A stretch of DNA of 64,000 nt from NCBI RefSeq assembly GCF_044324875.1, contig NZ_CP172185.1, one strand, 5' to 3'. Of the stretch, positions 15,001 through 18,000 are shown piece by piece. How positions within the stretch are numbered: the stretch's first letter is position 1; every line of letters starts with the position of its first letter. Made by a program: the position numbers. The DNA is from Escherichia coli (GTDB taxonomy: Bacteria > Pseudomonadota > Gammaproteobacteria > Enterobacterales > Enterobacteriaceae).

Positions 15001-18000
15001 TGGTTTCTATTGTGGTGACGTCTTGCTGTGGCTTATTTTTCGGTGATGTTCATTTTAGCGGCGTCTATTCCATTCCGCCTGATATTAGCGGCGTCATTGG
15101 TGAAGTAGATTTGAGCGGCGCGTTAACACTTGAACTCGCCGGTATCATTTTCTCCTTTATGCTGATCAACCTATTTGATTCATCAGGAACATTAATTGGT
15201 GTAACTGATAAAGCTGGCTTAATAGATAGTAACGGTCAATTCCCCAATATGAATAAGGCGCTGTATGTTGATAGCGTCAGTTCGGTGGCAGGCGCATTTA
15301 TTGGTACCTCATCTGTTACTGCCTATATTGAAAGTACTTCTGGTGTGGCGGTCGGTGGTCGCACGGGGCTGACGGCTGTCGTGGTCGGCGTTATGTTCCT
15401 GTTAGTTATGTTCTTCTCACCGCTGGTGGCGATGGTTCCTCCTTACGCAACCGCCGGAGCGTTAATCTTTGTTGGCGTGTTGATGACCTCAAGCCTGGCG
15501 CGCGTTAACTGGGATGATTTTACCGAATCGGTGCCTGCGTTTGTTACCACGGTGATGATGCCCTTTACTTTCTCGATCACCGAAGGGATTGCACTTGGCT
15601 TTATGTCGTACTGCATCATGAAAGTGTGCACCGGGCGCTGGCGCGATCTGAACCTGTGTGTGGTGGTGGTCGCAGCTCTGTTTGCACTGAAGATTATTCT
15701 GGTGGATTAGTAACTGGCGAGGGTTTCCAGATATCATGAGTTCTGATTACGCAGGAGAACTCATGATCTGGATAATGCTCGCCACGCTGGCGGTGGTGTT
15801 TGTGGTTGGTTTTCGGGTGCTGACATCCGGGGCCAGAAAAGCGATTCGCCGTCTCAGCGATCGGCTGAATATCGATGTCGTACCCGTGGAGTCGATGGTC
15901 GATCAAATGGGAAAGTCAGCCGGTGACGAATTTTTACGTTATTTGCATCGTCCGGATGAGTCGCACCTGCAAAACGCCGCGCAGGTGTTGCTCATCTGGC
16001 AAATTGTCATTGTCGATGGTAGCGAACAGAACCTGCTGCAATGGCATCGGATTTTACAAAAAGCCCGCCTTGCCGCTCCCATTACCGATGCTCAGGTCAG
16101 GCTGGCGCTGGGTTTTCTGCGCGAAACCGAACCTGAAATGCAGGATATTAATGCTTTTCAGATGCGCTATAACGCGTTCTTTCAGCCTGCCGAGGGCGTT
16201 CACTGGCTGCATTAAAACCGCTTCGTCTTATCAGCCTACAGACCGCGCCTGACCTGTCGGGTGGATAAGGCGTTCATGCCGCATCCGGTATCGAAACTGA
16301 CAGTTGGTGAACGCATTATCTACGTTCTATTTACAGCAGCACCTCCAGCCCGTGTTTTTGCACAATGCTGAGCAGTTTTAATGAAATGCCATTGGGGCGT
16401 TTAGCGCCACTTTCCCATTTTTGTACAGTTGAAACGCTGGTATTGAGATAGTGAGCGAAGACGGGCTGACTCACTTTTAATTTTTCCCGCAGTGCTTTTA
16501 TCTCAACAGGTTGTAAGTCTTGCACGCTGGTCAGGCAGGCTTTGTCAAAAGTACGCATCGTTTCGGCAGAAATAGCATCGACGCTGGACAATCCAGCCGC
16601 TGCGCTGTGAATAGCTTCAAATGCAGGACTTTTAAATTTAGTTTTTGCAGTCATAGCAGATCTCTGTCAGTTCTTTAGTGTTAATCATTGCTGTTAGTTG
16701 GGCTTTCGTCAGGAAGGCATAATGCTTTGCAAGTTCACGAAACCCAGCCAGTTCCTGACTATTGATGTTCGACATATCCTGTTTTGCATATAAAAACGTG
16801 TAAAACCAATTGCTTCCCCCTTTTGCCAGAATAATTGCACGCTCACGATTTTGGTGAAGGCGCTTTTTAAAAACGCCACCGCCAAGTGCATCAGCTTTAC
16901 CTTGTTCCGTTTCTAAAATGGCCCGGCACAACTCTTCATCTGTTATTGCATGAGACCTGGCTTCCCTTGCAAACCATTTGGTTTTAAACACGCGCATATC
17001 GTTGAGGTCCTGTTGTTAAAGTATATCACCAAGTGCAATACTTTATCCCTTGTTCCCAACACAATCGCGAAAATGCATATCACCTTGCCCTATGATTTTT
17101 ATTTCTTCGAGCAGCCTCGAACTTTTCCCACAACACCGTAAAAGTTGCAAAAACGTTAAATGCGTCACACATTTCAATGTTAAAGTGGTCGGCTTTTCCC
17201 CTGAAACATGCCACGGGTAACACCATGAGTGAATTTATTGCCGAAAACCGCGGCGCGGATGTCATCACCCGACCGAACTGGTCAGCCGTATTCTCGGTGG
17301 CGTTTTGCGTCGCCTGTCTGATTATCGTTGAGTTTTTGCCTGTCAGTTTGTTGACGCCAATGGCCCAGGATTTAGGCATTTCGGAAGGGGTTGCCGGGCA
17401 ATCGGTGACCGTGACCGCTTTTGTGGCAATGTTTGCCAGTTTGTTTATTACCCAGACAATTCAGGCCACTGACCGCCGCTACGTTGTTATTTTGTTTGCC
17501 GTTTTGCTGACGCTCTCCTGCTTGCTGGTTTCCTTTGCTAACTCATTCAGTTTGCTTTTAATTGGTCGTGCCTGTCTGGGGCTGGCGCTGGGCGGGTTCT
17601 GGGCGATGTCGGCGTCGCTGACCATGCGTCTGGTGCCGCCGCGTACGGTGCCGAAGGCGCTGTCGGTGATCTTCGGCGCGGTTTCTATTGCGCTGGTGAT
17701 TGCCGCGCCGTTGGGCAGTTTTTTAGGCGAGCTTATCGGTTGGCGCAATGTCTTTAATGCGGCGGCGGTGATGGGCGTGCTGTGTATTTTCTGGATTATC
17801 AAATCATTGCCCTCGCTGCCAGGCGAACCCTCGCATCAGAAACAAAATACTTTCCGCTTATTACAACGTCCGGGAGTGATGGCAGGGATGATCGCCATCT
17901 TCATGTCTTTCGCCGGGCAGTTTGCTTTCTTCACGTATATTCGCCCGGTGTATATGAACCTGGCGGGATTCGGCGTGGATGGCTTAACGCTGGTGCTGTT

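Follow-up and report, generated by a model that had tools for sequence, protein, structure and literature searches.

A probable chromosomal HigBA2-type toxin-antitoxin operon at the nepI-yicN site of Escherichia coli

Genes and upstream signals at the locus

The window, a stretch of 64,000 nucleotides of Escherichia coli DNA, carries two overlapping genes on the minus strand between yicN and nepI. The first (16638..16997, with its ATG at 16997) encodes a 119-aa toxin of the PF06296 (HigB2 / 'PF_RelE') family, and the second (16331..16654, likewise starting with ATG) encodes a 107-aa antitoxin made up of about 45 N-terminal residues and a C-terminal HTH-XRE domain of the HigA2 type. The two open reading frames occupy 16331-16997, as a preliminary description of this DNA had reported, and the toxin is basic, as stated there (pI 9.2); the antitoxin is basic as well (pI 9.6). 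According to the ORF coordinates, the 3' end of the toxin gene and the start of the antitoxin gene share 17 nt (16638..16654, minus strand). The corresponding genes of Citrobacter, Salmonella and Klebsiella overlap by the same 17 nt, and the overlap likely couples translation of toxin and antitoxin. An antitoxin homologue lay downstream of the toxin gene in every locus fetched (L004-L094). The toxin is 117 aa long in the PGAP annotation; given that the sequence MR(V/I)FKT is conserved in the family, the start that yields 119 aa is likely the correct one.

Both genes are under purifying selection, with Ka/Ks values of 0.06-0.12 against other Escherichia alleles (0.07-0.12 for the toxin between Escherichia species). 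These values, together with the Pfam matches described below, rule out chance ORFs, and both reading frames are real genes. In the window copy, the toxin ATG and the Shine-Dalgarno sequence are retained, as is every residue that is invariant or nearly so in the family, and the module appears to be intact.

Between the yicN stop codon and the 3' end of the antitoxin gene lies a REP-type palindromic element (16263..16288), which is also present in the K-12-type allele. The sequence has a unique match within the window, folds into a hairpin in the centroid structure, and fits the REP consensus; the Rfam search returned only a sub-threshold match, to the REP-derived naRNA4. The preliminary description had placed the gene pair next to a REP element and had described yicN and nepI as neighbors in K-12, and both points held: the two genes are directly adjacent in the K-12-type genome compared. 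Alignment showed that the segment 16291..17131 measures 841 bp in the window versus 42 bp in K-12-type genomes.

Upstream of the toxin gene, we detected an inverted repeat, ATTGCAC-TTG-GTGATAT (17023..17039, minus strand; longer arms at 17017-17029 and 17033-17045), which is a candidate operator. Its right arm overlaps a candidate extended −10 element, TGaTATACT (17020..17028, minus strand), that was read by eye and has no good −35 element. The right half-site recurs as GGTGATATGCATT (17072..17084, minus strand), a direct repeat 54 bp upstream of the operator. The Shine-Dalgarno sequence AGGA (17008..17011, minus strand) is located 10 nt 5' of the toxin ATG, in a region where ACAGGA is conserved across genera. 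A two-hexamer promoter scan and a terminator scan of 16150-17300 returned nothing. The empty two-hexamer scan is consistent with a weak −35; the extended −10 was instead proposed by eye and from conservation, TGnTATA(C/G/T)T being kept across Enterobacterales loci, and we infer the promoter assignment on these grounds.

The palindrome of the candidate operator was kept in a six-genus alignment while its flanks diverged, and a CAC-N3-GTG palindrome was present 5' of the toxin gene in 87 of the 91 related loci, with the consensus TAGCAC-N3-GTGCTA. The related loci that carry this consensus span the Proteobacteria, from Alpha- to Gammaproteobacteria; the E. coli operator departs from it in both half-sites. 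The CAC-N3-GTG core also occurs in the toxP promoter of Coxiella, which is bound by AntitoxP (PMC10098735). The inverted repeat is likely the autoregulatory operator of the toxin-antitoxin operon, and it offers a candidate that is testable for the whole family.

Family, predicted fold and proposed activity of the two proteins

The HMM search agreed with the earlier assignment of the pair as a RelE-superfamily toxin with an HTH antitoxin. The toxin matched PF06296 over its full length (residues 1-113 on model positions 1-120; E=8.8e-42, 142.6 bits, cut-off 27), and at E≤0.1 it matched no other Pfam family, neither PF05015, PF09907 nor PF05016. The HigB-2 reference of Vibrio cholerae scored 34.5 bits on the same model. 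PF06296 is a HigB2-type, toxin-first, ribosome-dependent family, for which the Pfam name 'RelE' is misleading (PMC11980606). NCBIfam returned no model for the toxin. When the AF2 model of the toxin (pLDDT 86.4) was compared with the PDB by Foldseek, ranks 1-7 were all V. cholerae HigB2 (probability 0.99-1.00, TM 0.43-0.60), followed by Mycobacterium tuberculosis HigB1, YoeB and RelJ. The predicted fold is thus of the RelE/BECR type, with HigB2 the closest. The corresponding searches by sequence were less productive: the PDB gave no match to the toxin sequence or to a profile of its close relatives, hhalign aligned toxin and HigB2 weakly, over 39 columns only, and a home-built HMM scored 1 bit. 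Since the PDB sequence searches were empty and the hhalign match was weak, the link to HigB2 comes from the Pfam match, from the fold prediction, and from a bridge through Coxiella ToxP, with which the toxin shares 31% identity over its full length (BLASTP, E=1e-18).

The active site of HigB2 comprises R51, R64, Y82 and K84 (PMC5416850), and also K49 (PMC10098735). Residues K44, R46, R53, Y70 and K72 of the toxin align opposite ToxP residues in BLASTP, and correspond to HigB2 K49, R51, R64, Y82 and K84, respectively, when the ToxP, hhalign and pairwise alignments are considered with strand topology; the toxin therefore appears to keep all five active-site residues. K44, R46, R53 and K72 were invariant in 37 diverse members of the toxin family, and the position of Y70 is occupied by F in some members. 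The least certain equivalence is that of R53 with R64, which relies on ToxP as a bridge and on the topology of the strands; when the toxin and HigB2 are aligned directly, a different register is favoured there.

The antitoxin matched HTH_3 in Pfam (32.9 bits, cut-off 23), and its best PDB match by sequence was HigA-2 (5JAA_A; phmmer E=8e-10, residues 46-102). In the structural model, the HTH domain superimposed on the HigA2 C-domain at 1.0-1.4 Å over 63 columns, with 40% identity, and the C-terminal HTH-XRE domain of the antitoxin is homologous to that of HigA2. The similarity to Coxiella AntitoxP (55% identity, residues 5-106) includes the N-terminal segment of about 45 aa, which is highly conserved, and in which a PDB sequence search detected no similarity to the disordered region of HigA2. 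An AF2 model of a toxin-linker-antitoxin fusion predicted residues 10-24 and 30-40 as confident helices; Foldseek aligned the HTH domain and the toxin of this model only separately. NCBIfam gave two matches to the antitoxin, MqsA and NadS, both sub-threshold.

By homology, the toxin would be an endoribonuclease with a RelE fold, entering the A site of the ribosome and cleaving the mRNA under translation, using K44, R46, R53, Y70 and K72 for cleavage. Translation of the antitoxin would be coupled to the toxin gene through the 17-nt overlap, and its N-terminal 45 residues or so would bind and neutralise the toxin. The C-terminal HTH-XRE domain would dimerise and repress the operon, presumably, judging from conservation, at the ATTGCAC-TTG-GTGATAT sequence that overlaps the extended −10. 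The searchable literature, queried for the genes, the proteins and the Pfam family, yielded no study of, or experiment on, the E. coli module; 'relE-1', the pathogen-associated toxin-antitoxin system of an AIEC survey, lies elsewhere, at a locus flanked by yiiD and fdhE.

Distribution, origin and decay of the module

A presence/absence survey, which the preliminary description had proposed, found the module to be variable: it was present in 1716 of 5426 complete E. coli genomes, always at the nepI-yicN chromosomal site and never on plasmids, and was absent from K-12-type genomes. Within E. coli, there is one allele family (at least 96.8% identity); a seemingly diverged allele in HS-02 (78.7% identity) was homopolymer-ridden assembly noise and was rejected as a second allele. 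The module is thus accessory rather than conserved core, through loss. The order nepI-toxin-antitoxin-yicN, in the same position and orientation, was found in Escherichia sp. E1V33 and E. coli E69, in Citrobacter koseri and C. amalonaticus, and in five Klebsiella species and K. indica; in Salmonella, the pair adjoins nepI, and the loci concerned yielded no homologue of yicN. Given that this arrangement is common to other Escherichia, Citrobacter and Klebsiella, the short allele of K-12 more likely represents a deletion than an ancestral empty site, and the earlier statement that the genes had been inserted between yicN and nepI was not borne out. A possible trace of the deletion was seen in the 42-bp filler of the K-12-type allele, which matches the toxin codons ETEQGK (16895..16913, minus strand) at 17 of 19 positions and in frame, a score reached by 1 of 2000 shuffles. 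At the same position, the filler matched two other Escherichia alleles at 16 of 19 and had no match in Citrobacter or Klebsiella. MAFFT placed the filler instead just left of the right breakpoint; as that match is weaker, we retained the toxin-relic reading, and the filler is suggestive of a deletion relic of the toxin gene. We conclude that the module has long been established at the nepI-yicN site in Enterobacteriaceae and that K-12, together with about two thirds of E. coli, has lost it, which reverses the direction first assumed for the event.

One could envisage instead that a mobile toxin-antitoxin cassette recently landed between yicN and nepI beside the REP element, and that K-12 preserves the ancestral empty site. 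Such a horizontal insertion would be in keeping with the G+C content of the 841-bp segment (43.8%, compared with about 53% in the flanks), which in the module is 9-15 points below that of nepI in every host examined, and with a left breakpoint (16290/16291) that abuts the REP element. Relatives of the module are plasmid-borne in other Proteobacteria, a tight, short-branched cluster of Pectobacteriaceae and Erwiniaceae copies, which occupy other loci, seems to have spread horizontally, and the toxin stands at about the same distance (65-73%) from relatives that are syntenic as from those that are not. We nevertheless consider a recent insertion quite unlikely, as it is at odds with the shared position and orientation in three genera and on the nepI side in Salmonella, with a single E. 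coli allele family at one chromosomal site and no plasmid copies, and with the possible in-frame relic in K-12. Moreover, the module borders lack direct repeats, an integrase or an IS, and within Escherichia the module and its flanks have similar Ks values (0.16-0.29 and 0.23-0.42, respectively). Another alternative concerns the state of the module in E. coli, in that it may be decaying or domesticated, with a toxin that is harmless in practice and an antitoxin retained for regulation or to prevent addiction to incoming plasmids of the HigBA2 type. Among eight sampled E. coli carriers, the toxin start was changed from ATG to ATA in four and a frameshift was found in one, and the antitoxin was intact in all eight. 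The ATA haplotype occurred in exact form in 491 of about 1715 carriers. Some 29% of carriers have lost the toxin ATG, the O157:H7 and O55:H7 genomes that were examined among them; the start codon was likewise lost in the O145 genome seen. The toxin of O157/O55 has a G61V substitution as well, E69 combines G41S at an invariant glycine with a broken Shine-Dalgarno sequence, the whole module is missing from 68% of E. coli, and the operator is degenerate in this species. With so many carriers bearing toxin-inactivating changes, toxin activity cannot be assumed species-wide. However, an exact ATG haplotype was found in 1057 carriers, and the intact appearance of the window copy and the low Ka/Ks of the toxin between Escherichia species also make domestication unlikely.

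The two roles suggested in the preliminary description, defence against phage (here taken as abortive infection) and stabilisation of the island-rich region (here the iatC/eilA island), would both be compatible with a HigBA2 mechanism, but we found no evidence for either and regard them as very unlikely. Some RelE-superfamily modules are generally known to act against phage (discussed in PMC11980606); a search of PADLOC-DB 2.0, however, gave no toxin match and only weak generic HTH matches to the antitoxin, and no genuine phage-borne copy was found. The module lies about 1.6 kb from the variable island in the window, yet in the O157:H7 genome examined it is present without the island, nepI being followed directly by yicS, and the island was found in 755 genomes compared with 1716 for the module. 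The core gene nepI lies between the two, so loss of only the island cannot be selected against by the module. It is also highly improbable that the toxin is a ParE-like gyrase poison instead of an mRNA endonuclease. The toxin belongs to the RelE/ParE superfamily, PGAP names the product 'RelE/ParE family toxin', and a ParE structure appeared far down the Foldseek results; but the Pfam family is PF06296 and not a ParE family, the nearest folds are HigB2, HigB1, YoeB and RelJ, the five RNase active-site residues are conserved, and inhibition of translation is the activity described for its characterised relatives, HigB2 and ToxP.

We favour, with a probability of about 0.8, the reading in which the window pair is a chromosomal toxin-antitoxin operon of type II and of the HigBA2 family, one that has long resided at the nepI-yicN site and is being lost or attenuated in E. 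coli. A more detailed proposal, which we put forward tentatively and at somewhat less than even odds, is that this ancient and mostly vertical element is controlled by a family-wide operator (TAGCAC-N3-GTGCTA over the extended −10) and is decaying 'toxin-first' in E. coli. The stages would be an intact module (the window), a lost start codon (the O157:H7, O55:H7 and O145 genomes mentioned above), a frameshift, and a deletion with a 42-bp scar (K-12). If true, these alleles would offer a natural series in which to follow the disarming of a chromosomal toxin-antitoxin pair that keeps its antitoxin. The recurrent disarming of the toxin is a small, clean example of chromosomal toxin-antitoxin decay, and such decay matters when 'functional' systems are counted in pathogenic E. 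coli. The pair itself is an ordinary toxin-antitoxin module of an already known family, and its practical value is modest.

Comparison with known toxin-antitoxin systems

RelBE of K-12 was rejected as a model for the pair: it is antitoxin-first, with a ribbon-helix-helix RelB and a PF05016 toxin, whereas the order here is toxin-first, the antitoxin is of the HTH-XRE type, and PF05016 was not matched. MqsRA shares the toxin-first order, and the antitoxin HTH resembles the C-terminal domain of MqsA (PDB 3FMY, E=0.013); the antitoxin scored 26.3 bits on MqsA PF15731 (cut-off 30), with its C-terminal part only, and 41 versus 61.8 on TIGR03830. Membership was rejected, as the zinc-binding domain at the N-terminus of MqsA is missing from the antitoxin, and the toxin is not an MqsR protein. 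The preliminary description had called the order that of a HigBA-type module. The toxin-first arrangement stands, but the type is HigBA2 rather than that of Rts1 HigBA. The HigBA of Rts1/Proteus vulgaris and that of K-12 (YgjNM) likewise combine a toxin-first order, a RelE-superfamily ribosome-dependent RNase and an HTH antitoxin. Rts1-type HigB belongs to PF05015 and K-12 HigB to PF09907 (PMC11980606), neither of which was matched by the toxin described here. Furthermore, the Rts1 and K-12 HigB toxins have no C-terminal helix, and their HigA uses its folded domain for neutralisation instead of a disordered N-terminal segment.

V. cholerae HigBA2 (PDB 5JAA, 5JA8, 8A0X) resembles the E. coli module in the Pfam family of the toxin, in the closest solved fold and probably in the five active-site residues, in the toxin-first order, in an antitoxin with an N-terminal segment and a C-terminal HTH-XRE domain (40% identical), and in a single inverted repeat, in E. 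coli a candidate operator, that overlaps the promoter. The two systems differ in that toxin identity is only about 20%, the β2-β3 loop is about 10 residues shorter in the E. coli toxin, and some 20 extra C-terminal residues (a helix and a strand, 110-115) are absent from HigB2. The N-terminal antitoxin segments have no detectable similarity. The operators also differ (TGTACGC-N5-GCGTACA in V. cholerae versus TAGCAC-N3-GTGCTA in the family of the E. coli module), as do all four base-contacting residues of HigA2, R68/E71/N72/R77, which are S/Q/K/A in the E. coli antitoxin. HigBA2 resides in the superintegron, whereas the E. coli module occupies a conserved core site.

The nearest relative with experimental characterisation is ToxP/AntitoxP of Coxiella burnetii QpH1 (CBUA0028/CBUA0027). 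Unlike the E. coli module, this pair is plasmid-borne and involved in plasmid maintenance, ToxP has an annotated 30-residue N-terminal extension and a longer β2-β3 loop, and the toxP promoter has a canonical TTGACA −35, which is absent at the E. coli locus. The likeness is otherwise extensive, as the similarity of the toxins (31%) includes the C-terminal strand and that of the antitoxins (55%) the N-terminal segment, and the systems share the toxin-first order with an overlap and a CAC-N3-GTG core overlapping the promoter −10. ToxP is toxic and inhibits translation, and AntitoxP rescues from it and binds both ToxP and the toxP promoter (PMC10098735). A previously uncharacterised accessory module of E. 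coli can thus be assigned, on sequence grounds, to the HigBA2/ToxP-AntitoxP type, with a toxin that is likely a ribosome-dependent mRNase.

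Layout and age of the module between yicN and nepI

The window carries a real and intact type II toxin-antitoxin module of the HigBA2 family. Two overlapping minus-strand ORFs were found exactly where the preliminary description had placed a two-gene module: the toxin ORF at 16638..16997 (119 aa) and the antitoxin ORF at 16331..16654 (107 aa), both with an ATG start and, by their coordinates, sharing 17 nt. They are flanked by yicN (15763-16215) and nepI (17225-18409), both on the plus strand, which are direct neighbours 210 bp apart in a laboratory strain with a genome of K-12 size, in line with the preliminary description. 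Alignment of the two alleles showed that they differ at 16291..17131, where the window has 841 bp and the K-12-type allele 42 bp. The REP element noted beside the module is a REP-type palindrome (16263-16288) that is common to both alleles, forms a hairpin in the fold, and directly abuts the left breakpoint of the indel; the naRNA4 match at this palindrome was below threshold.

The survey of complete E. coli genomes detected the 841-bp segment in 1716 of 5426, and hence the module is variable within the species. The segment was always chromosomal and at least 96.8% identical, and all carriers but one have it at a single place; for all carriers with an annotation that was listed or inspected, that place is between yicN and nepI. 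The remaining genomes have the short allele. The sole "diverged" E. coli copy, that of HS-02 (NZ_CP172818.1; 78.7% identity), has many homopolymer runs in the antitoxin gene and in the toxin gene's 3' half, and its divergence looks like an assembly or consensus error, not biology.

The module had been described as inserted, but the direction of change is most likely the reverse. The order nepI-toxin-antitoxin-yicN was also found in Escherichia sp. E1V33, E. coli E69 (a separate GTDB species representative), Citrobacter koseri, C. amalonaticus, Klebsiella oxytoca, K. michiganensis, K. grimontii, K. pneumoniae ATCC 13883, K. indica and one gut Enterobacteriaceae. Only the yicN side of the arrangement was seen in K. 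spallanzanii; in Salmonella the module adjoins nepI, and no yicN homologue was found in the Salmonella module loci. Synonymous divergence within Escherichia is of similar magnitude for the module (Ks 0.16-0.29) and for yicN and nepI (0.23-0.42). Alternatively, the module may not have been inherited vertically at this site, given that its G+C content is 44-48% in all hosts, compared with 53-62% for nepI, and that the toxin's distances to syntenic and to non-syntenic relatives are about equal. A neighbour-joining tree gave basal positions and long branches to the syntenic copies and placed the non-syntenic copies of Pectobacterium, Dickeya, Erwinia and Serratia in a tight cluster that probably spread horizontally. 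Based on the synteny shared across Escherichia, Citrobacter and Klebsiella, together with Ks values like those of the flanking genes, we conclude that the module is most likely old at the nepI-yicN site and that the short K-12 allele arose by deletion.

The 42-bp filler of the K-12-type allele is suggestive of a relic of the toxin gene. A 19-nt stretch matches the toxin codons for ETEQGK (16895-16913) at 17 of 19 positions, in frame and in the same orientation, a score reached by one of 2000 shuffles. The match was 16/19 with other Escherichia alleles and was not seen with Citrobacter or Klebsiella, and MAFFT gave a weaker alternative alignment of the filler.

Two further observations concern the surroundings of the module. 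Between O157:H7 FRIK2533 and the window, identity is 93.9% for nepI (Ks 0.24) and about 99% for yicN and the neighbouring toxin-antitoxin pair (Ks 0.02-0.04), pointing to a recombination breakpoint between the toxin gene and nepI in this comparison. A second recurring chromosomal site of the same module lies immediately downstream of pabA/argD, in a Dickeya locus (L011) and three Enterobacteriaceae loci (L012-L014); in the latter three, fic-yhfG, a toxin-antitoxin-like pair, follows the module.

Toxin decay and proposed roles

We found no experimental study of the E. coli module in the literature, and in public annotation it is already labelled generically. Comparison of Escherichia species shows purifying selection on both genes (Ka/Ks 0.07-0.12 in the toxin and 0.06-0.08 in the antitoxin), all fetched loci (L004-L094) have an antitoxin homologue after the toxin, and the window copy retains the ATG, an AGGA Shine-Dalgarno sequence, and all invariant and nearly invariant residues; on this basis we take the window copy to be probably active. 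PGAP starts the toxin at a GTG, codon 3 (117 aa; window 16991-16997), in all genomes (L002, L095-L101), even when the ATG is present. This start would drop the family-invariant R2, and the 119-aa start is more likely because the family conserves MR(V/I)FKT (M1-R2-x-F4).

Eight E. coli carriers were examined. The antitoxin was intact in all eight, but the toxin ATG (16995-16997) was changed to ATA in four (O157:H7 FRIK2533, O55:H7 DEC5B, HS4 and FDAARGOS_1279), with G61V in addition in the O157 and O55 carriers, and the toxin of a fifth, MS6198, was frameshifted. E69 has G41S at an invariant toxin glycine and a broken Shine-Dalgarno sequence. With 59-nt haplotype probes, exact ATG matches were obtained in 1057 and exact ATA matches in 491 of about 1715 carriers, a sample biased towards O157:H7. 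AUA is a very poor translation initiator in E. coli, and the ATA alleles therefore probably yield little toxin. That the toxin has been disarmed to differing degrees in different E. coli lineages is of minor interest, as are the ancient synteny and the predicted family-wide operator.

Neither of the roles suggested in the preliminary description was supported. As to phage defence, no PADLOC model matched the toxin, and the sole "phage" match (INPHARED AFYI01000003.1, 515 kb) proved to be a mislabelled Salmonella Infantis WGS contig. As to stabilisation of the neighbouring island (iatC/air, eilA and an IpaD/SipD-like gene), the island lies beyond the core gene nepI, was found in 755 of the 5426 genomes (best match 94.8% identical) as against 1716 for the module, and was absent from the O157:H7 genome examined, in which the module is present and yicS directly follows nepI. 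In the window, the gene directly after nepI (18611-28867) encodes a 3418-aa inverse autotransporter adhesin of the iatC / air-eaeX type, whose Ig-like domains are highly repetitive; eilA and the IpaD/SipD-family gene come next, to ~31000, and the island is ETT2-related. Plasmid-borne relatives of 50-58% identity occur in Rhizobiales, Legionella and Pseudomonas, and Coxiella plasmids were matched too, so that a role in maintaining plasmids is documented for the family. Members of the Enterobacteriaceae clade lie on chromosomes: the top two "plasmid" matches (PLSDB NZ_CP141089.1 and CP125156.1) were chromosomes of 4.9 and 5.4 Mb.

A predicted operator upstream of the toxin gene

At 20-48 nt before the toxin ATG there is an inverted repeat with 13-nt arms (17017-17029 and 17033-17045); its core, read on the coding (minus) strand, is ATTGCAC-TTG-GTGATAT (17039-17023). 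The right arm overlaps a candidate extended -10 element, TGaTATACT (17028-17020, minus strand), and a two-hexamer promoter scan was empty because there is no credible -35 element upstream of the toxin gene. In a six-genus alignment the palindrome, the -10 element and the Shine-Dalgarno sequence were kept, and the sequence further upstream had diverged. The motif CAC-N3-GTG was present upstream of the toxin in 87 of 91 loci from Gamma-, Beta- and Alphaproteobacteria and one Gemmatimonadetes MAG, with the consensus TAGCAC-N3-GTGCTA; it was retained in otherwise unrelated surroundings with the PF06296 toxins of Acetobacteraceae, Rhizobiales, Betaproteobacteria and Enterobacterales (L015-L094). 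The E. coli palindrome departs from this consensus in both half-sites. We found no paper defining TAGCAC-N3-GTGCTA as the family operator. The Coxiella toxP promoter, TTGACA-17-TATAGT, contains TTCAC-TTA-GTGAT in its spacer and -10 region.

We infer that the antitoxin binds the predicted operator at 17017-17045. The family palindrome differs from the V. cholerae operator, TGTACGC-N5-GCGTACA (PMC11006873), and the base-contacting residues of HigA2, R68, E71, N72 and R77, are replaced by S, Q, K and A in the window antitoxin, which is consistent with an operator unlike that of V. cholerae. The right half-site recurs as GGTGATATGCATT (minus strand, 17072-17084) within the module-specific segment, 54 bp from the main palindrome on its upstream side; this additional copy may serve as an auxiliary site or represent a duplicated -10 element.

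The toxin and antitoxin compared with HigB2/HigA2 and ToxP/AntitoxP

The earlier identification of a toxin with an HTH antitoxin was right: HMM searches assigned the toxin to PF06296 (142.6 bits, full model covered; cut-off 27) and detected an HTH_3 domain (Pfam) in the antitoxin. PF06296, though named "RelE" in Pfam, is the family that contains V. cholerae HigB-2, which scored 34.5 bits on the model (query identical to PDB 5JA9_C), and a 2025 survey treats it as a HigB2-type, toxin-first family of ribosome-dependent mRNases (PMC11980606). PDB sequence searches with the toxin, and also with a close-family profile, gave no match. With the AlphaFold2 model of the toxin (pLDDT 86.4), the best seven Foldseek matches were HigB2 structures, followed by M. 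tuberculosis HigB1, YoeB and RelJ.

Residues R51, R64, Y82 and K84 are needed for HigB2 activity (PMC5416850), and K49 is also reckoned an active-site residue (PMC10098735). From the ToxP alignment, the partial alignments by hhalign and by pairwise comparison, and the model's topology of four strands, we mapped K49, R51, R64, Y82 and K84 to K44, R46, R53, Y70 and K72 of the toxin. Of these, K44, R46, R53 and K72 were invariant across 37 diverse toxin-antitoxin pairs, and position 70 is Y or F among family members. Least certain is the equivalence of R53 and R64, as the register favoured by a direct pairwise alignment would remove a strand. Compared with HigB2, the β2-β3 loop of the window toxin is about 10 residues shorter, and residues 98-115 of the toxin form an additional helix and strand at the C-terminus; these belong to the canonical PF06296 model and are lacking in HigB2.

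The best solved relative of the antitoxin is HigA-2 (E=8e-10, residues 46-102), and the modelled HTH domain superposed on the C-terminal domain of HigA2 at 1.0-1.4 Å with 40% identity. The closest characterised relative of the module is ToxP/AntitoxP of the Coxiella QpH1 plasmid, for which toxicity, translation inhibition, rescue, toxin binding and promoter binding were demonstrated (PMC10098735). The window toxin is 31% identical to ToxP over its full length (BLASTP, E=1e-18), and the window antitoxin is 55% identical to AntitoxP, the N-terminal segment included.
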